A stretch of 64,000 bases of DNA from a virus, in UHGV virus genome UHGV-0076294. One strand, 5' to 3'. Positions within the stretch are counted from its first letter, which is position 1. Each line of letters begins with the position of its first letter. The notes under the pieces are model-generated. The model saw only the letters and a list, made by a program, of their open reading frames with translations. It was not told the DNA's origin and did no database searches. This document shows positions 4,617 through 27,453 of this stretch, piece by piece. A program made the translations under genes and the position numbers.

Positions 4617-5164
4617 TCATCATCTCCTTTAACTAAACCCAGTTCAATTAACAATTCAAAATCGATTTGGCGAAATTTGTTATCAAAACCAGAATCCCAA
4701 TCGATATGTAACCCTTGTCGTTCTTCATCGGTAAGTTCAGGATAAATTAAACCAAGGAACGCTTCACGTTCTTCGTAAAATCCATCGATAGTAGAATCTG
4801 GATTTCGTGTTGCATAGATCGTAATGCCCGGAAAGGATAATCCTAATGCTGTTATAGATTCGACGCTCGGTTCTTGCAAGGCCCTGCGTAAAAGCACGAT
4901 TTTATGTCGTGGAAATTCTAGTACACGTTGTTCAAATCCAGGATTCCGTTTCTCAATTTCTGTAACTGAAAGATCGGTGAGTTCTGTGCAATACATTGGG
5001 ATAACTACGGTTACTCCGTGACGAATTAATAGTCGTTTAACATCGTCAGTGAAGTCTTCACCGTTAATTTGCACATAACAACCAAACAGTTTTGTGCTCT
5101 CTAAAAACTTTTCCAAAAAACGGAATTTACGCTTCGTAATATTGTGGATCAGAATTGGTTTCAT
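4592..5164 (-). CDS. Hypothetical protein (radical SAM cluster)
   Basis: ORF overlapping both neighbours (coupled translation); no recognisable motif. Confidence 0.5.
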   Translation of the reverse strand: MKPILIHNITKRKFRFLEKFLESTKLFGCYVQINGEDFTDDVKRLLIRHGVTVVIPMYCTELTDLSVTEIEKRNPGFEQRVLEFPRHKIVLLRRALQEPSVESITALGLSFPGITIYATRNPDSTIDGFYEEREAFLGLIYPELTDEERQGLHIDWDSGFDNKFRQIDFELLIELGLVKGDDECLLLTKA

Positions 5165-6449
5165 CTTTGGCTTCTCTCAATTGTTTTTCTTTCTGGGCAC
5201 GTTCACGTACGCAACGAGGGCAATAACACATGCTATTATCGTGAAAATCTTTCACTGACGTCGTGCCCATTTTCTGTTTCCAATATTCCGCAACCATCAA
5301 TTTTGCAGTTGTCCAGCCGCATTGACGGCGTTCGGCGTGATAAGCTTTGCGATCTTCTAGCGTCCCTTCTCCATTCTCGTAAGATGCAGCCGCACAACTA
5401 CCACAAGCGTGCTTCATTGGACAACCTAAACAGGTTTCAGGATAGTTGGTATATTGCGTCTGAATCTCTTCCAGCAATTTCCCGTCATCTAAGCTAACGA
5501 ATTCCCGGCCAACTAATTCAAATACGGCAGAACGTGATGTTACGGTTGACATGAAACGGTTACAACCGAAGATCTTACGATCGAATCCTAAGCAGGTCAT
5601 GTGTGTTAACGTACCGCAGAACGGACGTAAACGTTCTGGATTCAAACGTACAGTATCGTTATACAATAATTGGTCGCGCCAGTTTGGTTCCCAGATAGTA
5701 TCAAAATCTAACCCGTCTGGAATGATGTGCGACAAGGTGTTACGTGGGTTGGTGTGTAAGCCCTTCTCAACCCAATAATCAACCACATCCATCATCTGCA
5801 ATGCGATTGAAGTAGCCATGCTCCGTGGCATAATGTCTTCGAAGGTTACGTTGCCGGAAATAGTTCCACCGCCAGTAATATCAATTAATGATTTCATTCC
5901 AGCAGCATAGAACGGTAACGTTTCCAACGTAAAGGTCGCTTTTACACCAAGTTCTGCAATACCGACTTCTTTTAAGTAATTATAGCCCCGCACAGCGGCC
6001 TCGTAAGATCCTTCACGAGTTGTTGTAAAAATCCGGTACTTATCGTGCGATTCGGGCAATCCATCAATAGACACCCCAATAGAAAGCCTGTCTTTCCAAC
6101 GTTCAATAATTTCTCTATTCAAAGGTCTATCTAACAATGTTCCGTTAGTAGAAATGCTAAACATAAACGGCCGATTATGTTTTTCGCATAACTCTTCTGC
6201 GGTTTCAAATGCCGCCATTAATAACTTAGGCTGCATAAACGGCTCGCCGCCGATAATGTCGATAACGACCTCGATGTTTGTCAGGTCTTTATCCCTTTCG
6301 AAACAGGCATGTAAAAAATCAACGATATCTGCCGCTTTGTTATTCCGAGGATACTTACGTTCGTAACAATACTCACAGTCTAGGTTACACGATAAATTTG
6401 TAACGATCTGATAAGTCAGTTGTTTAGGATAACTATTTTCTTGACTCAT
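5127..6449 (-). CDS. Radical SAM enzyme with C-terminal SPASM/twitch-like Cys-rich domain
   Basis: CNLDCEYC (CxxxCxxC) near N-terminus, GGEP motif; C-terminal CGTLTHMTC...GC and CLGCPMKHACGSC cysteine clusters typical of SPASM auxiliary Fe-S domains. Confidence 0.8.
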   Translation of the reverse strand: MSQENSYPKQLTYQIVTNLSCNLDCEYCYERKYPRNNKAADIVDFLHACFERDKDLTNIEVVIDIIGGEPFMQPKLLMAAFETAEELCEKHNRPFMFSISTNGTLLDRPLNREIIERWKDRLSIGVSIDGLPESHDKYRIFTTTREGSYEAAVRGYNYLKEVGIAELGVKATFTLETLPFYAAGMKSLIDITGGGTISGNVTFEDIMPRSMATSIALQMMDVVDYWVEKGLHTNPRNTLSHIIPDGLDFDTIWEPNWRDQLLYNDTVRLNPERLRPFCGTLTHMTCLGFDRKIFGCNRFMSTVTSRSAVFELVGREFVSLDDGKLLEEIQTQYTNYPETCLGCPMKHACGSCAAASYENGEGTLEDRKAYHAERRQCGWTTAKLMVAEYWKQKMGTTSVKDFHDNSMCYCPRCVRERAQKEKQLREAKDETNSDPQYYEA

Positions 6450-7356
6450 TTTCCGCCCCTCTATTACGTTCTGCCATCACTACACGACGAATGTACTCGT
6501 AAGCTTCTACACCTATTGAGGAGGCTAGTTGGTTACACCCTGCTTTCGTAGCTATTGGTACATTTTTAAGTTGGTTTTCTTCCCCGTCCGCGTCTATCCT
6601 GAGACTTTCGCTACAGGCGTTACAAGCATGATCGAAGAATCTGTTTACAATAAAGCCGCAGTCTCTAGAATTTAGAACATTCAGTCTTTCTATATTCTCC
6701 TGAATTCTAAAATACCCGTAAATAAAGTTCATAACGTGATCGGGAGATAACGGTTTTGGCATGTTTTTGTCTAGTAATAAGGACATAGAACGAAAACCGT
6801 AATGGTAGATAGCAGTATATAATTGAATGATATCTTCATGCCATCTTTTATTGGATAAATTCTCCCTCGTAACAACAGCCCAAGTGTTAACATTATTCAA
6901 GCTGTAAATTACTTCTAACGCCTCATGGCAATTATCATCAATAAAGCGCTTAAAAGGCCGTTCAGAAAGATTAAACCCATCGATGCTAACATATATAGCA
7001 TCGAATTGTTTTAACAACGGTAGATGCGATTTACGCATTTTTAAACCGTTCGTGAACATTTGGTGTTTGAGTTCAGGACGGATCGTTTTTAATTCGTCAA
7101 CAAACGCCTCAATCTTTCGAGTTGCCAGTAGCGGTTCACCGCCAGTCCACTGAATTTCAGTAATGGTTGGGTTAGACGACAACGCTTTCAAAATTCGTTC
7201 ACGTTGAAACTCTCGCGGAGAATCTTCACGATGCATGTAATAGGCTCCGCCGCAGAAGCTACAGTCCAGATTACATTTGGATGTAGCAACTACGGACAAT
7301 ACGGTGGGTTTATTGTATAAACGATTCGATAACCTTGGCTCTACGTCGGTTGTCAT
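6433..7356 (-). CDS. Radical SAM enzyme (paralog of 9406-10320)
   Basis: CNLDCSFCGG (CxxxCxxC) and GGEPLL motifs; ATG at 7356 preferred (SD ggag) over 7371; 3' end overlaps start of SPASM gene. Confidence 0.8.
   Translation of the reverse strand: MTTDVEPRLSNRLYNKPTVLSVVATSKCNLDCSFCGGAYYMHREDSPREFQRERILKALSSNPTITEIQWTGGEPLLATRKIEAFVDELKTIRPELKHQMFTNGLKMRKSHLPLLKQFDAIYVSIDGFNLSERPFKRFIDDNCHEALEVIYSLNNVNTWAVVTRENLSNKRWHEDIIQLYTAIYHYGFRSMSLLLDKNMPKPLSPDHVMNFIYGYFRIQENIERLNVLNSRDCGFIVNRFFDHACNACSESLRIDADGEENQLKNVPIATKAGCNQLASSIGVEAYEYIRRVVMAERNRGAENESRK
6679..6773. repeat. 95-nt block identical to 9643-9737 (within paralogous radical SAM genes)
   Basis: Read directly; flanking coding sequence of the two paralogs is clearly diverged. 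Confidence 0.85.
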
Positions 7357-7377
7357 TGCAGGTGACTCCATCTATTT

Positions 7378-8265
7378 TTAAATATAGCCAATGGATAACA
7401 AAGGATCGTCGTAAGCGTTAACTCCGGGTTTTAATACAAATGGTGAATTGTAAGCCTCGATAATGCGATTAAGGTCCTTATAACGCACGTTTAAACGTTC
7501 TAAATCCGCCAACGTTACGTTACGTTCCAATACCGCCGACACTGCTGCTTTTTCTTCATCAGTTAACGTGACTTTCGTCATTAAGAAACTAACAAGTTTT
7601 GCTAAATCTGCTTCCGATGACGGGTGTTCACCAATACGTGTTTGAATTAAATGTTGCATCCACGGCTTACGAATACGTTTTGTGATTTCATGTTCATCTG
7701 TAAGGGCAACCCACACAGAGCGTTCGCGATCCCACACAAATTTATAACTGTACGCCATCAGATCGGCTAAGCAGTTGATGCCAAGCTCCTCGTAACCTTC
7801 TATTTCAATGTACGGTTCGGTATCAACATAGTTTTTTGTTTCTACAGGAACCAGTGCATAAAAGTACGGGAATGAACCGAGATAGTCTGGAGACCACCAA
7901 CGACGTGCTACAGGCTTCGCATTCAACTCTTTAAATGGCGTAAAGAACAATTCCAAATCTACAGAATTATTCAGAATACCGTCACTAAAGAAATATTTAC
8001 CGTCAACCAATTTACCGCGTAAATCTGAATCACCGGTAAACACCACTACGCTTTCTGCTGACAGATCGCGTATTTTAAAAGTGTTTTCTACTGAATAGTT
8101 ATTGCGATCGGTAAAAAAACGACCGCGCACTTTGGGCCATTCGCCAGGTAACTGAGTTAACAAACGAACTTTATCTTCCAAATGAGCGCGTATTGAATCG
8201 GGGGAAGAAATATGAAGTGGGTGGTTGAAAATTGTTTTATAGGCTAAATGCAAATCGTTTTTCAT
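7378..8265 (-). CDS. Hypothetical protein (radical SAM cluster)
   Basis: Long ORF between Cys-rich genes and radical SAM gene; no recognisable motif. Confidence 0.5.
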   Translation of the reverse strand: MKNDLHLAYKTIFNHPLHISSPDSIRAHLEDKVRLLTQLPGEWPKVRGRFFTDRNNYSVENTFKIRDLSAESVVVFTGDSDLRGKLVDGKYFFSDGILNNSVDLELFFTPFKELNAKPVARRWWSPDYLGSFPYFYALVPVETKNYVDTEPYIEIEGYEELGINCLADLMAYSYKFVWDRERSVWVALTDEHEITKRIRKPWMQHLIQTRIGEHPSSEADLAKLVSFLMTKVTLTDEEKAAVSAVLERNVTLADLERLNVRYKDLNRIIEAYNSPFVLKPGVNAYDDPLLSIGYI

Positions 8266-8277
8266 TGATTACTCCAA

Positions 8278-8757
8278 TTATTTTACGGTCAATCTGACGT
8301 TCAAGGTATAGAACCCGCCACGCCATTGCCTGCCGGTAACTTCAAATTCCGCAGTAAAGCCGTTTGATTTACTCGGTTGCTGCGTAATCGCCATGGTTCC
8401 GCCGGAATTACTTAATACTTCTAACGAGATAGAAACAGAAGATGCATTACCGATAGAGTCTATCTTAAAACTAGCCGCGTCTGTAAAATTGACACTGATA
8501 CCGTTACCCATCGCAACTTGTGGATAGGCGTAAGACTTGCCAGACAGTAACGATTTAAAGATCCTCATCGGTTTTTCTTTACCGGTTAATGTTGCGCATT
8601 GAATAAAGACGGTCCCAGTAGAGAAATTGATACGGACAACATCTTTAGCGTGTAGCTTAGACTCAACATAAACAACGGCTTTGTTATCGTAGGCGGGTCT
8701 TGATGGGGTTGGTGTGGAACCGCCGCCGGAGGGCTTACTTACCCCCCCCCCGCTCCC
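8278..8757 (-). CDS. Hypothetical protein; frame is open upstream of the first ATG (8568) up to the C10 tract, candidate frameshift fusion partner of the Cys-rich ORF 8739-8945
   Basis: ORF track gives 8278-8568; same frame has no stop from 8757 down to 8568 and no obvious SD before the ATG at 8568. Confidence 0.4.
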   Translation of the reverse strand, partial: GSGGGVSKPSGGGSTPTPSRPAYDNKAVVYVESKLHAKDVVRINFSTGTVFIQCATLTGKEKPMRIFKSLLSGKSYAYPQVAMGNGISVNFTDAASFKIDSIGNASSVSISLEVLSNSGGTMAITQQPSKSNGFTAEFEVTGRQWRGGFYTLNVRLTVK

Positions 8758-8945
8758 TTACTACAGCTACCGCTGCACGACCAACTACAACCACCGTTAC
8801 AATTATAATGACTTAAAGGTAACCCAGCTAGATTGTTGGTTGAAGAAACCGTCCCTTGGTTTGCAATATAGTTGTTTGCATTAGCGGTGGTGATATATCC
8901 CTCCGCTGTTACTAACCTGTCGCGTATGTTTTTAAGACTTATCAT
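8739..8945 (-). CDS. Cys-rich leader+core peptide C (short core, ends in poly-Gly encoded by C10 tract)
   Basis: Leader MISLKNIRDRL and junction HYNCNGGCSWSCSGSCS are paralogous to peptides A and B; start 3 nt after stop of peptide B. Confidence 0.55.
   Translation of the reverse strand: MISLKNIRDRLVTAEGYITTANANNYIANQGTVSSTNNLAGLPLSHYNCNGGCSWSCSGSCSKGAGGG
8742..8751 (-). repeat. C10 homopolymer (G10 on coding strand) at 3' end of Cys-rich ORF C
   Basis: Read directly; encodes the terminal GGG; a 1-nt frame change here joins an open downstream frame. Confidence 0.9.
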
Positions 8946-8948
8946 TTC

Positions 8949-9347
8949 TTATCTTCCAGTACACGATTGCTGACATCCGCCTCGACATGAACCCGAACAT
9001 GTTCCGGTGCAACTACTTGAACAACCACCCGAGCAGTTACCTGTGCACCCTCCTGAGCAGGTACTGCTACAACCTGTACAACCTGTACTACATCCTGAAA
9101 CACAGTTCGCTGAACAGGAAGAACCGCAGCCACCGGAGGCGTTGCCGGTGCAGCCGCCCGAACAACTTGAGCATGTCCAGCTACAGCTACCTCCGCAGTC
9201 ATAGTGAGTTCTCGGCTGTCCTCCAAACAGATCGCTATTATTAGTGGCTTTACCACGAATATAGTTCTGCACCGCACCAGTGTTTTTTAATGCAGTAGAG
9301 TCTATGTTATCCAGCCGGGCCTTTAAAGAAGATAAACCAATCGCCAT
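8949..9347 (-). CDS. Cys-rich leader+core peptide B (precursor-like; about 24 Cys at C-x3-C spacing)
   Basis: Leader about 45 aa then DCGGSCSWTCS followed by repeats such as CSGGCTGNCSGGCSSSC; SD aggt. Confidence 0.65.
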   Translation of the reverse strand: MAIGLSSLKARLDNIDSTALKNTGAVQNYIRGKATNNSDLFGGQPRTHYDCGGSCSWTCSSCSGGCTGNASGGCGSSCSANCVSGCSTGCTGCSSTCSGGCTGNCSGGCSSSCTGTCSGSCRGGCQQSCTGR

Positions 9348-9405
9348 TTTAATACCTACTGGTTTAGTGCCCCCTAGGACACATTATAATTCATTTTCTG
9401 TAAAA

Positions 9406-10320
9406 TTATCGTAGTTTTTCTGAGACTCTATTCTTAGCCCCTACCACACGACGTATATAGTCGTAAGCATCTAATCCAACCTTTCTGGCCAAGTCACTAC
9501 AACCATGCTGCGTTACGATTTCAACGTTCTTTACTTGGTTCTGGGCACCGTCAGACTCAATGCGAAAACAACGACTACACGTATTACAGGGTTCATCAAA
9601 TAACGCATTTAGCGTAAACGCACATTCACTTCGATTGGACGAATTCAGTCTTTCTATATTCTCCTGAATTCTAAAATACCCGTAAATAAAGTTCATAACG
9701 TGATCGGGAGATAACGGTTTTGGCATGTTTTTGTCTAAAACCAGCGACATCTCACAAAAACCATAATGGTAAATGTGGTTATGTAACGCAATTATATCTT
9801 CGTACCAACGTTTATCCCCAATACGCTCGCGTGTCAAGACCGCCCAAGTACGAATATTTTTCAATTCGTAAATTGTCTCCAAAACCTCGTATTGTTTTTC
9901 TTCGATAATCCTCATGAACGGACGCTCTGATTCTTTGAATCCATCCATGCTAAAAAAGATACTATCAAAACCCTTTAACAACGGTAGATGCGATTTACGC
10001 ATTTTTAAACCATTGGTATACAGGTAATGTTCGCAACGAGGATACTTCTCCCTTATCTCTTCTATAAGGGTATCAATTTTACGCGAGGCAAGTAATGGTT
10101 CGCCCCCTGACCATTGGATATTTGTGATAGTCGGGTTATTTTCCAGCGCCTCGATAATACTTTCCTTTTGTACTTCTGTGGTTGTATCCTCTCTATGCAT
10201 GTAATAGGCTCCGCCGCAGAAGCTACAGTCCAGATTACATTTGGACGTTGTAATCACGTTTAACGTTCTCGGATTACTGTAGAGCTTATCGGATACCGTC
10301 GGTCTAGTAAGTTCTTCCAT
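9406..10320 (-). CDS. Radical SAM enzyme (paralog of 6433-7356)
   Basis: CNLDCSFCGG motif; SD aagga; begins 19 nt after stop of peptide A. Confidence 0.8.
   Translation of the reverse strand: MEELTRPTVSDKLYSNPRTLNVITTSKCNLDCSFCGGAYYMHREDTTTEVQKESIIEALENNPTITNIQWSGGEPLLASRKIDTLIEEIREKYPRCEHYLYTNGLKMRKSHLPLLKGFDSIFFSMDGFKESERPFMRIIEEKQYEVLETIYELKNIRTWAVLTRERIGDKRWYEDIIALHNHIYHYGFCEMSLVLDKNMPKPLSPDHVMNFIYGYFRIQENIERLNSSNRSECAFTLNALFDEPCNTCSRCFRIESDGAQNQVKNVEIVTQHGCSDLARKVGLDAYDYIRRVVGAKNRVSEKLR
9643..9737. repeat. 95-nt block identical to 6679-6773
   Basis: Read directly. Confidence 0.85.
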
Positions 10321-10339
10321 TCGAACTGATCCTTATTTT

Positions 10340-10735
10340 TTATGGGTTAGAACAACCACCTGCACAAGAACCACTACACCCCGAGGAACAACGTCCAGCA
10401 CATCCCCCAGTACAAGTCCCACTACATCCTGAACAACCACCCGAACATGTTCCGGTGCAACCACTGCATTGATTACCACACGCAGAGGAACAGCTTCCTA
10501 CGCACACCGATGTACATGTACCTGAACAACTCGTACAACCATGCGTACAACCGTTTGAGCATGTCCAGCTACAGCTACCTCCGCAGTCTAATCGACCGGG
10601 TGTCCAACCTGAAAATGAATCAGCAGCATTATGTGCTTTCGACGCAACTTGCGGATCAACACGTGGCCCAGTTGCTATTCGGTTCTCTACGTTGGTGATT
10701 CGGTCACGTACGTTTTTAACACTGATCGCCATCAC
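10340..10735 (-). CDS. Cys-rich leader+core peptide A (precursor-like)
   Basis: Leader MMAISVKNVRDRITNVENRI..., junction RLDCGGSCSWTCS, core of C/G/S/T with C-x3-C periodicity; SD aaggat. Confidence 0.65.
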   Translation of the reverse strand: MMAISVKNVRDRITNVENRIATGPRVDPQVASKAHNAADSFSGWTPGRLDCGGSCSWTCSNGCTHGCTSCSGTCTSVCVGSCSSACGNQCSGCTGTCSGGCSGCSGTCTGGCAGRCSSGCSGSCAGGCSNP

Positions 10736-10799: not shown

Positions 10800-11999
10800 T
10801 TATTTCGTACCCGCTTCTGCTTGTACGTCATCACGAGACGTCAGGTTAGCGTTAACGTGCACTGGGGCCTGAACCACGCCACCGTATCTCTTGTGGAGAT
10901 AACCTGTATGTGGGTTATCTGCCGCAATGTGGTTTTGTAGGTTTTGGTTCGCCTGACTGATTGCGTTCGTGTTATTATTAACCTGCTGTTTAAGCGCATC
11001 CAGGTTTTGTTGTAACTGATCGATTTTCTGATCGGTTTCTTGGCCATGTTGCTCTAACGCTTCAACACGCTGAATAACCTGATTCAGTTTTGTATTTAAA
11101 TCGTTGACACTCTTTTGCAGTTGTAACACTAACGAGTTCAGGTTCGCTAACGCTAAAGCCATTTTCTGGTAGTTTTGAGCAACCACGTTAAGTTGGTCGT
11201 TCCACGCTTCCAGAGAGCTGACAACAGCGTCAATACGCTTACCTAAAGCTTCATCTGCTTTCTTCAGTGCATTGATTTCCGTAATCGTTGCGTCGATAGC
11301 AGACTGGACGTCACGAATAAGCGCACGGATTTCAGTTTCTGTTAGTCCATTAACCTGATGGATATCAAGTTGGTGGACGTTACCGGTTGCATTGATGTGC
11401 GCATTTAAAGCGTCCAAGAAGTCGTTTTTCAGACTTTCCAGAATCGCTTTAATGTTCTCTAACTGTACCGCATCGCCAGAACTGATCGCGTCCTTAATGC
11501 CCGCCAATACAGCGATGATATATTCAAAGCCATAAATGTCACCTACGTCTTTATACGTCGGCGCTGACGGGAATGTATCTGGTACGTTACGTAAGTCTTT
11601 AAATGCAACTGTACGGTTATCGAGGTTTAGCTCAGCAATCGCTTGTTCGATAGCCACGATGTTTGCAGACTGTGGGCCACCAACTACCTGCGCAGATACC
11701 GTAATGTCTGTCGGAATCGCTGTGTTAGTGACCACAACCGCCATGACAATCTCGCGGTTTTTAGTCAGCTTTTCATAAGCCGGGTGTGCAAAAATCAACT
11801 CATAATCGGTACCACGTTCGTAGGTTGCATCCGGTCGGTTAGCAACGCGCAAACGAAACGTGTCCGCAAAGAACGGGCCGTCAGGAAAAGCAAAAGCACG
11901 GTTTACTTTACCTGTACCTAACGTAACCTGACGCTCCACAGCGTTAGACGTTAGCGAGCCTGTTAAATCTAAAGGATATTGGTAAACAATGGAGGCCAT
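10800..11999 (-). CDS. Tail fibre-like protein with coiled-coil region
   Basis: N-terminal module shared with the three large downstream proteins (PDGPFFADTFRL...GTDYEL); long Q/N/L-rich heptad-like segment; ATG at 11999 preferred over GTG at 12005. Confidence 0.5.
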   Translation of the reverse strand: MASIVYQYPLDLTGSLTSNAVERQVTLGTGKVNRAFAFPDGPFFADTFRLRVANRPDATYERGTDYELIFAHPAYEKLTKNREIVMAVVVTNTAIPTDITVSAQVVGGPQSANIVAIEQAIAELNLDNRTVAFKDLRNVPDTFPSAPTYKDVGDIYGFEYIIAVLAGIKDAISSGDAVQLENIKAILESLKNDFLDALNAHINATGNVHQLDIHQVNGLTETEIRALIRDVQSAIDATITEINALKKADEALGKRIDAVVSSLEAWNDQLNVVAQNYQKMALALANLNSLVLQLQKSVNDLNTKLNQVIQRVEALEQHGQETDQKIDQLQQNLDALKQQVNNNTNAISQANQNLQNHIAADNPHTGYLHKRYGGVVQAPVHVNANLTSRDDVQAEAGTK

Positions 12000-12039
12000 G
12001 GCCACTCTCCTTTATTCGAGACGTCCTTGTCCCGAGTCA

Positions 12040-27197: not shown

Positions 27198-27240
27198 CCT
27201 CCTACCCTCTAAGAGGGTAGGAGTAGCACGTTTTTTTTTT
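27198..27240. terminator. Bidirectional terminator
   Basis: tcctaccctc-taa-gagggtagga followed by T10. Confidence 0.7.
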
Positions 27241-27243
27241 CAC

Positions 27244-27453
27244 TTAGTCTTTTTTGTAGACGATCGCGTTACCGTGCAGTTTGTTGTTACCGGAAATACC
27301 GATAACTTTAAACGCTTCACCGCCGATCTTTTCAGCTTCGACAGCCAGCTTAGCAGTAACGTCGTCTACGGTGTCACCGAAAGCGCTTACGTTACCGATT
27401 TTCTTGAACTCTTCAGGAATGTGTTCAGCAGAAGAGAATTCTTTAATAGCCAT
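27244..27453 (-). CDS. DUF1471 (YdgH/BhsA/McbA-like) small protein lacking a signal peptide
   Basis: IGNVSAFGDTVDDVTAKLAVEAEKIGGEAFKVIGISGNNKLHGNAIVYK closely follows the BhsA-family pattern (GTISA...LHGTAVIYK); SD ggagag. Confidence 0.7.
   Translation of the reverse strand: MAIKEFSSAEHIPEEFKKIGNVSAFGDTVDDVTAKLAVEAEKIGGEAFKVIGISGNNKLHGNAIVYKKD

Follow-up and report, generated by a model that had tools for sequence, protein, structure and literature searches.

A run of ten G residues in the virus genome UHGV-0076294 lies at the junction between a short cysteine-rich open reading frame (ORF), here called ORF C, and a downstream coding cassette that lacks a start codon at its beginning. The DNA analyzed is a 64,000-nucleotide (nt) stretch of this genome, referred to below as the window, and all features of the locus are on its minus (coding) strand. 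We conclude that the G10 tract is probably a real, maintained and length-unstable junction between ORF C and a swappable start-less cassette, at which a change of one nucleotide switches the reading frame. The tract itself is a statistical outlier in this genome. The number of G/C runs of at least 10 nt expected in 64 kb is 0.02-0.03, the second-longest G/C run is 6 nt, and GGG represents 17% of Gly codons, giving three consecutive GGG codons a probability of approximately 0.005. The features that make up the junction are the following.

8739-8945, minus strand: ORF C, a 68-amino-acid (aa) Cys-rich peptide with a conserved N-terminal portion of approximately 50 aa, a short core, CNGGCSWSCSGSCS, and the C-terminus ...CSKGAGGG-stop.
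8742-8751, minus strand: G10 homopolymer (C10 on the plus strand), formed by the third base of a GCG codon and three GGG codons and abutting the TAA of ORF C; the proposed frame-switch site.
8753-8759, minus strand: Shine-Dalgarno (SD)-like sequence AAGGGAG, directly 5' of the G-run and coding for K-G-(A).
8735-8794, minus strand: alternative-frame mini-ORF in the +1 frame of ORF C, from a GTG at 8794 to ...VVVVGRAAVAVVRERGGGK-stop, with its end at 8735.
8278-8742, minus strand: cassette 1, 154 codons and a stop in the -1 frame of ORF C, consisting of the linker VSKPSGGGSTPTPSRP and a predicted all-beta domain of approximately 138 aa.
8695-8742, minus strand: the linker VSKPSGGGSTPTPSRP, rich in Gly, Ser, Pro and Thr, at the 5' end of the cassette.
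8566-8568, minus strand: internal ATG, used by mechanical ORF finders as the start of a 96-aa ORF (8278-8568).
Predicted markers of a fusion: the junction peptide GAGGGVSK, or PSGGGSTPTPSR linked to ORF C, in a species of approximately 23 kDa.

An earlier note on this DNA had described ORF C as ending in ...CSKGAGGG-stop on a 10-nt C run at 8742-8751, and this is what the sequence contains, the 3' codons of ORF C being AAG GGA GCG GGG GGG GGG TAA. The same note's statement that the -1 frame is open from a stop at 8758-8760 into ORF 8278-8568 is likewise borne out. After the TAA at 8758-8760, this frame runs from 8757 without another stop until the TAA at 8278-8280 and encodes GSGGG followed by 154 codons (VSKPSGGGSTPTPSRP AYDNKAVVYVESK ... 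NVRLTVK). The further proposal that a 1-nt change in the run would give a fusion of about 225 aa holds in one direction only. By computation, one G added to G10 yields a 222-aa fusion of ORF C and the domain, whereas one G removed leaves the ORF C frame merely ending in ...GGGK-stop. A G9 tract would instead run the +1 (alternative) frame, to which the GTG at 8794 belongs, on into the cassette to give ORFs of 171-173 aa, as called in many assemblies. This third state had not been foreseen in the earlier note.

Relatives without a cassette point to the ancestral arrangement. The ORF C of SEGD1, SPN3US and Erwinia phage pEa_SNUABM_29 has 68 aa, a GAGNR-stop end and no G-run; in SEGD1 and SPN3US, its 3' end reads GCG GGG AAT CGA TAA, with no homopolymer. 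ORF C orthologues of SPN3US-like and Erwinia jumbo phages are 68-69 aa long and have GAG-x-R-stop at the same position, and in the cassette-less relatives a 295-aa gene begins 22-27 nt past ORF C. Relative to these genomes, the window has 465 extra nt, beginning exactly at the tract. Because ORF C of the cassette-less relatives is also 68 aa long and adjoins the 295-aa gene, the ORF C stop is in its ancestral position and 8278-8742 is an insertion; a cassette would thus have been inserted at the extreme 3' end of ORF C. A tblastn search of 50,697 phage records with two cassette types gave no match beyond the ORF C leader. Together with the G-run, the AAGGGAG sequence makes up an extended purine-rich segment with complementarity to the anti-SD sequence, and AAGGGAG may take part in ribosome pausing or initiation. 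The cassette-less SEGD1 likewise has GGAGCG, which is therefore ancestral coding sequence.

Judging from its pattern of conservation, cassette 1 is coding along its whole length and under protein-level selection, including the part before ATG 8568. Its homologues span 100% of the 154 codons at identities down to 58%, and nucleotide differences pile up at third codon positions, also in the 174 nt 5' of ATG 8568, as in L004 (14/9/29). All 13 distinct cassette alleles are stop-free. The first 58 codons contain no ATG, GTG or TTG, so that the earliest possible start is codon 59. The earlier note had remarked that ATG 8568 has no obvious SD sequence and is preceded by about 57 stop-free codons; the count is 58, and the predicted anti-SD duplex is indeed weak, at -3.0 kcal/mol compared to a median of -6.1 kcal/mol for 64 likely genes in the window. 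Moreover, several lineages (P0025, L007/L010/L011/L014/L030) have Ile in place of the Met, and gene callers give a product of 77 aa for them. Because the SD is poor and the Met is not conserved, the 96-aa ORF is best regarded as an ORF-calling artefact, and ATG 8568 was rejected as the true start on these grounds together with the protein-level conservation of the 58 codons upstream of it.

One could suppose that the window lineage does not express the cassette as a complete domain, and that the cassette is either a decaying remnant or the source of the 96-aa product only. The closed state, in which the cassette is out of frame, is the commonest one, and 96-aa ORFs are called on many contigs, as this explanation would predict. 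We nevertheless consider it very improbable, given 154 codons without stops or frameshifts in 13 alleles, the third-position bias that extends over the 58 codons 5' of the ATG, the change of this ATG to ATH (Ile) and its weak SD, and the absence from a 96-aa product of the first predicted beta-strands.

The segment VSKPSGG of the linker is identical in all four aligned homologues, and the linker is predicted to be disordered, with a predicted local distance difference test (pLDDT) score below 50 over residues 1-21. Searches of Pfam and PHROG found no family for either cassette type searched. The similarity of the cassette domain to known folds is that of a generic beta-sandwich, outside the immunoglobulin (Ig)-like families (Big_2, I-set, FN3 etc.). 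An AlphaFold2 model of cassette 1 from a 4-sequence alignment had a pLDDT of 48 and was unusable; in a model of the cassette-3 fusion described below, pLDDT values of 70-80 were confined to the domain. A comparison of the window ORFs with the cassettes found no relation between them. We infer that the cassette domain is a binding or host-range module.

The length of the tract differs among relatives in public assemblies. These comparisons rest on assemblies, mostly short-read, and the differences are between samples or assemblies. Tracts of G9 were found in L004, L005, L018, L019, L021, L023, L026 and L053, tracts of G10 in L006-L017, L020, L022 and L028-L030, and a tract of G11 in L002/L003. 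Between L017 and L020 (G10) on the one hand and L018, L019 and L023 (G9) on the other, there are 0 mismatches over 1.9-5.9 kb, and the tract is the sole difference. To this extent the suggestion in the earlier note of a phase-variable homopolymer is supported, with room for a technical contribution to the difference. A state-blind sample, consisting of 14 loci found via neighboring genes or a pattern independent of frame state, contained seven G10 tracts, six G9 tracts and one contig whose start coincides with the tract (L024, Logan). Identical ORF C sequences of 68 aa were present on 38 contigs and of 69 aa (...GGGK) on 37 contigs.

Gene calls follow these states. The closed state, as in the window, is called as ORFs of 96, 77 or 129 aa; the alternative state as ORFs of 164-175 aa that start in the +1 frame of ORF C; and the fused state as ORFs of 221-224 aa with the junction ...CSKGAGGG-VSKPS... 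or ...CSKGAGGG-VSENRP.... Fused ORFs are known from protein calls of 221-222 aa (P0017, P0018, P0038, P0039 and P0041), 224 aa (P0067 and P0075, one of them on a 227-kb contig) and 226 aa (P0049 and relatives), and public assemblies contain ORFs of this kind (221-226 aa) with each of the three cassette types that we distinguish. An exact-pattern scan of IMG/VR viral contigs for the tract flanks returned 0 matches; that collection does not contain the phage. A gapped-pattern scan of Joint Genome Institute (JGI) metagenome contigs returned 18, of which 17 were due to chance; the real one is L053 (222.7 kb, G9).

Further variants of the junction and cassette are found in the databases (P0115, P0113, P0086 and P0004). 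Among the junction variants, loss of the TAA leads to read-through in the zero frame of ORF C to give 106 aa, and in others the tail is 76-78 aa long; the C-terminus of one cassette allele is frameshifted (85 aa). The junction and cassette region looks like a hotspot of small-scale change. Two ORF C variants ending in ...GAGGR-stop (P0020 and P0080, 68 aa) are abundant, on 43 and 35 contigs, respectively. The phages that carry them may be cassette-less members of the group, in which case the presence of the cassette would itself be polymorphic.

Long G/C homopolymers are error-prone in sequencing. A single true length, for example a G11 tract within one 222-aa gene, could therefore have been miscalled as G9 or G10 by short-read assemblers, much as the earlier note envisaged when it raised the possibility of a sequencing error that hides a longer gene. 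Logan contig L024 breaks exactly at the tract, and some of the assemblies have low coverage (4-8x according to contig names). We consider this explanation highly unlikely. G10 and G9 each recur across many independent samples, assemblers and studies, including contigs of higher coverage (20-154x according to their names), and the exact 68-aa ORF C of the window is present on 38 contigs; an artefact would need the miscall to be the consensus in more than 90% of assemblies. In addition, two separately produced assemblies, L002 and L003 (Logan/Sequence Read Archive [SRA] and NCBI GenBank), agree on G11, and the lineages with interrupted tracts, L031 and L068, have different frames genuinely fixed in nature. 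The idea of one longer gene formed by fusion thus stands in part: fused ORFs of 221-226 aa exist and the fusion is fixed in L031, but an error that hides such a gene in the window is improbable. We infer that the length changes arise in the phage and not in sequencing.

Other cassettes occupy the same site. Lineages L009 and L027 have a different start-less cassette of approximately 156 codons (cassette 2) behind the same G10 and in the same -1 frame. A third type (cassette 3), approximately 50% identical to cassette 2, was seen in four arrangements. In L057, it is located behind GGT and G9 and is closed. In L032, it follows G6, the ORF C stop is kept, and the cassette has its own GTG start with a strong SD-like stretch (-11.8 kcal/mol). 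In L031, it is part of an in-frame 226-aa fusion via the interrupted Gly codons GGC GGA GGG GGA GGG GTA, a tract equal to that of L057 plus 1 nt and with a synonymous G-to-A interruption; the 226-aa fusion P0049 is present on 10 contigs, 8 of them longer than 200 kb. In L068, an interrupted tract is fixed in the alternative frame and ORF C is extended by 24 codons (24 contigs); a possible start of the cassette is a GTG 6 nt past the G-rich stretch, and the call of the Prokaryotic Genome Annotation Pipeline (PGAP) is 154 aa. An uninterrupted run is found with cassettes 1, 2 and 3 in diverged lineages, despite differing synonymous sites in the flanks. Genomes that lack a cassette also lack the homopolymer, and interruptions of it are confined to lineages fixed in one frame. 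A comparison of cassette 1 with cassettes 2 and 3 in hhalign gave a probability of 80%, inflated by the alternative-frame leader common to them. After the leader was trimmed, the sole match was the motif QQ(P)PS(K/E)xNG(F/W), at an expect value (E) of 0.1, and because this is only a short motif, homology between cassette 1 and cassettes 2 and 3 is unproven.

Because the cassette cannot initiate alone, the length of the tract modulo 3 sets one of three states. In the closed state (G10, as in the window), ORF C would be 68 aa and the cassette untranslatable barring a 1-nt shift. In the alternative state (G9), ORF C would be 69 aa and an ORF of 171-173 aa would begin at an ATG or GTG within ORF C that lacks an SD. 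In the fused state (G11 or G8 in the context of the window), a 222-aa protein would comprise the leader, Cys core, Gly-rich linker and beta-sandwich domain. Change in tract length by slipped-strand mispairing in phage DNA is the likeliest and most economical mechanism. Mixed populations would then contain a fraction of genomes that express the fusion, amounting to a stochastic, phase-variable display of an accessory domain in the baseplate/fiber module in which, as discussed below, the locus sits. Slippage of RNA polymerase, or -1 slippage of the ribosome on G GGG GGG UAA, could add a low level of fusion from closed genomes.

We think it fairly probable that cassette 1 yields the fusion as its functional product, because the cassette has no start or SD, the flexible linker is conserved, fused ORFs exist for every cassette type, and one lineage has the fusion fixed. 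The alternative-frame product is a possible, if doubtful, candidate for this role. The fusion is favored over it because the alternative start lacks an SD, varies in position and is present in cassette-less genomes.

A related explanation takes the ORF of approximately 172 aa, beginning at an ATG or GTG in the +1 frame of ORF C, to be an independent gene in which the poly-G, about 16 codons in, is an on/off tract; G9 would be on, G10 off and the fusion accidental. A homopolymer soon after the start codon is the textbook layout of phase-variable genes. The alternative state is also common, with the 69-aa ORF C on approximately 42 contigs, ORFs of 171-173 aa on dozens and 6 of 13 state-blind loci in this state. 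The difference between L002 (G11 after GCA) and L004/L005 (G9 after GCG) is a whole codon and keeps the alternative frame, and L068 is fixed in this frame, with the domain free-standing there. On the other side, the alternative starts have no SD in any lineage (-0.9 kcal/mol for the window GTG, and -0.9 and +1.5 kcal/mol for the ATG of relatives), and they lie inside a translated ORF. The position of the start also varies: it is an ATG at Asn-Gly codons, a GTG one codon further on in the window lineage, or a GTG still further downstream in the forms of 164-170 aa. The same ATG and an open alternative frame are present in the cassette-less SEGD1, and the alternative start and frame can thus be understood as by-products of the codons of the Cys core. 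Furthermore, L068 uses a different, downstream GTG/ATG start, the fixed-fusion lineage L031 closes the alternative frame, and the hydrophobic-plus-linker N-terminus of 35 aa in the alternative product has no obvious role. We therefore regard an independent gene as unlikely.

Alternatively, the switch could operate mainly at the level of RNA. G10 would then be the designed state, a fixed fraction of fusion would be made by ribosomal -1 slippage with UAA in the A site or by G insertion by the RNA polymerase of the phage, and differences in DNA length would for the most part reflect noise or neutral drift. P-site slippage is favored when the A site holds a stop codon, and recoding is known in dnaX and prfB (reviewed in PMC5009743). 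The arrangement GGG GGG (GGG) TAA-G with a -1 cassette recurs in three tract contexts (window G10, L057 GGT and G9, and L032 G6), and G GGG GGG directly before the UAA fits the slippery heptamer X XXY YYZ in the zero frame, with the SD-like AAGGGAG upstream. Moreover, although closed is the commonest state, the cassette is intact under purifying selection, and for this it must be expressed to some extent. Herpesvirus thymidine kinase (TK), rescued by low-level frameshifting at a G7 run, offers a precedent (PMC5009743). However, RNA structure 3' of the tract is no better than that of shuffled sequence (minimum free energy z = -0.48 and -0.25), and the sequence downstream of the tract differs between cassettes. 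The frame relation is not conserved either, being -1 in G10, L057 and L032, +1 in G9, G11 and L068, and in frame in L031 and the fused members. As for polymerase slippage, the documented bacterial cases use A/T runs, not G (PMC5009743). Overall, a switch acting mainly through RNA is a decidedly poor candidate. A canonical, conserved -1 programmed frameshift, one form of the programmed slippage that the earlier note raised, was rejected, given the varying frame relation and the failure to find a stimulatory structure.

Returning to a DNA-level switch between ORF C and its cassettes, several observations weigh against it. Fused ORFs that keep the tract uninterrupted are rare (none of 14 state-blind loci, and at least about 7 contigs among the cluster members listed); if the fusion is the "on" state, then most genomes are "off". 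Since all of the data are assemblies of the kind described above, part of the G9/G10 difference could be technical. A control homopolymer, the T10 at 27231, also varies across lineages, with no near-identical pairs among those returned. Finally, two cassette-3 lineages, L032 and L068, seem able to produce the domain by itself, so its linkage to ORF C may be dispensable. These lineages also bear on the earlier note's expectation that orthologues with a stop-separated arrangement and no homopolymer would speak against a linked product: L032 (G6, GTG start) and L068 (interrupted tract, GTG start) go part of the way in this direction. The cassette is intact in many closed genomes and expression is therefore needed, by either frequent switching or recoding.

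The phage to which the window belongs is a jumbo phage of approximately 222-230 kb, distantly related to the SPN3US/SEGD1 jumbo phages of the genus Seoulvirus. Nucleotide identity to SPN3US-type phages is approximately 70% over about one-fifth of a 5.7-kb query. Contig NODE_45 of ERZ1742067 is 100% identical to the window across the 5.8 kb compared. The phage is missing from the 50,697 deposited phage records, and its proteins are encoded by hundreds of contigs assembled from gut-type metagenomes and from isolates of Salmonella, E. coli and Shigella. This appears to be a widespread jumbo phage without a deposited isolate genome, and a carrier state is one possible explanation for its presence in isolate assemblies. 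The genes that surround the junction are as follows.

5127-6449, minus strand: radical S-adenosylmethionine (SAM) gene (PF04055), downstream of the locus.
6433-7371, minus strand: radical SAM gene (PF04055), downstream of the locus.
7378-8265, minus strand: conserved 295-aa gene (phrog_8030), directly downstream of the cassette.
8949-9347, minus strand: Cys-rich peptide B, a full-length phrog_6085 paralogue of ORF C.
9406-10320, minus strand: radical SAM gene (PF04055), between peptides A and B.
10340-10735, minus strand: Cys-rich peptide A, a full-length phrog_6085 paralogue of ORF C.
10800-12005, minus strand: 401-aa coiled-coil virion protein (phrog_2163, virion structural protein), with an SPN3US counterpart so annotated and in synteny.

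The SPN3US counterpart of the 401-aa protein appears to be gp171, as judged from size and position and not from a match of identifiers. SPN3US gp171 is a 47.1-kDa, essential, tail-associated protein described as a "possible baseplate/fiber protein" (PMC5105663). Because the locus adjoins this virion protein, it sits in a baseplate/fiber module. Inside this module, 5127-10735 on the minus strand resembles a biosynthetic cluster for ribosomally synthesized and post-translationally modified peptides (RiPPs), with three phrog_6085 peptides and three radical SAM genes. The genes alone give the layout of a RiPP-like precursor, namely a short ORF with a conserved N-terminus and a Cys-rich core, with radical SAM genes nearby. 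Peptides A and B carry long C-x3-C runs. ORF C matches phrog_6085 at an E of 8e-25, covering just the first half of the profile. We found no proteomic evidence for phrog_6085 proteins, and a literature search on the radical SAM genes and Cys-rich peptide family of SPN3US found nothing relevant. The radical SAM gene at 9406-10320 is extra relative to SEGD1 and SPN3US and is a paralogue of that at 6433-7371, with approximately 73% nucleotide identity.

In the deposited relatives SEGD1 (KU726251, L001; 8288-9316) and SPN3US (NC_027402, L055; 3600-4740), the Cys-rich genes are annotated in the wrong frame (SEGD1_169, SEGD1_170 and ACQ60_gp100), and ORF C is left unannotated. SEGD1 peptide A is split over two frames by a 1-nt difference from SPN3US, in which it is intact. 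Elsewhere in the window, T10 at 27231-27240, the other 10-nt homopolymer, follows a perfect hairpin (CCTACCCTC-TAA-GAGGGTAGG), on account of which the site resembles an intrinsic terminator; in ten diverged lineages the T-run measures 8, 9 or 10 nt. Beside it, at approximately 27244-27453 on the minus strand, is a 69-aa gene with a Pfam YdgH/BhsA-like match (PF07338), a family of small proteins known from enterobacterial genomes. This gene is called in all related contigs.

A broader reading would connect the junction to its neighborhood and see in it a dedicated device for generating diversity. The Cys-rich peptide, modified by radical SAM enzymes, could be a handle for anchoring or cross-linking in the baseplate or fiber, and the tract would stochastically attach to it one of several exchangeable beta-sandwich binding domains, so that every burst would include virions with and without the domain, hedging over hosts or gut surfaces. 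We regard this combination as improbable as it stands. If it were true, a RiPP-like peptide would serve as a structural adaptor with phase-variable cargo, and DNA slippage might be amplified by the phage RNA polymerase or the ribosome. Independently of this reading, linking the radical-SAM-associated Cys-rich peptides of phrog_6085 to a modular C-terminal domain provides a handle on the role of the peptides. The locus also points to a systematic fault in annotation. Public records either leave out ORF C and the cassette or call them in the wrong frame, and "hypothetical proteins" of 96, 77, 129 and 172 aa in hundreds of Salmonella and E. coli assemblies are fragments of one unit. Unusual features of the architecture are the three states of the switch, its location at a domain junction, the swappable nature of the cassettes and the existence of natural variants that are fixed in a single frame. 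Whether enterobacterial jumbo phages hedge host recognition or adhesion by one-nucleotide switches is now a testable question, for which the natural fixed-fused, fixed-alternative and closed alleles can serve as controls.

The closest parallel is in Campylobacter phages, in which, as Sorensen and colleagues reportedly described in 2021 (Cell Rep 35:109214, a reference listed in PMC10877375), poly-G tracts are hypermutable and their length changes switch the reading frame to produce phenotypically mixed phage populations. The tract described here is similarly an uninterrupted run of about 9-11 G residues in a region of the host-recognition type, and its length differs between otherwise identical genomes. 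Unlike the Campylobacter-phage tracts, it belongs to an SPN3US-like enterobacterial jumbo phage and is known here from assemblies and predicted ORFs. It is also located not inside one ORF but at the junction of a complete small ORF and a start-less exchangeable cassette, with three states, such that the predicted ORFs shift with tract length between 68 and 96 aa, 69 and 172 aa, or 222 aa. We know of no phage-encoded poly-G phase variation outside Campylobacter phages. If the tract is hypermutable in the phage, poly-G phase variation reaches jumbo phages of Salmonella, E. coli and Shigella, which are model hosts and relevant to therapy.

Contingency loci of Neisseria, Haemophilus and Campylobacter vary by slipped-strand mispairing in poly-G/C tracts, and their fixation by interrupting substitutions is known. 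The junction resembles them in that a one-base change in poly-G alters the frame and in having fixed lineages with interrupted tracts. It differs in being virus-encoded and in joining two coding units in three states rather than turning a single gene on and off.

A second parallel is with the Ig-like domains that extend the C-termini of phage structural proteins, whether in frame or through -1 or +1 frameshifting (Fraser et al. 2006, as summarized by Atkins et al. 2016, PMC5009743). Such domains land by recombination, and their expression is sometimes rescued by frameshifting (PMC5009743). As in these proteins, and in the T3/T7 capsid proteins 10A/10B, an accessory C-terminal beta-sandwich has -1, +1 and in-frame relatives, and short and long products are possible; the present cassette, unlike theirs, does not belong to an Ig-like family. 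Sites of transcriptional slippage, finally, include those of Thermus dnaX, IS630-family elements, the Shigella mxiE and spa genes, and G insertion in the paramyxovirus P gene (PMC5009743). The variation at our tract differs from these in being documented in DNA, and the bacterial cases are A/T runs. It shares with them a homopolymer of at least 9 nt, about the length of the RNA-DNA hybrid, at a frame boundary, where one nucleotide more or less in the mRNA would yield a product read in two frames.

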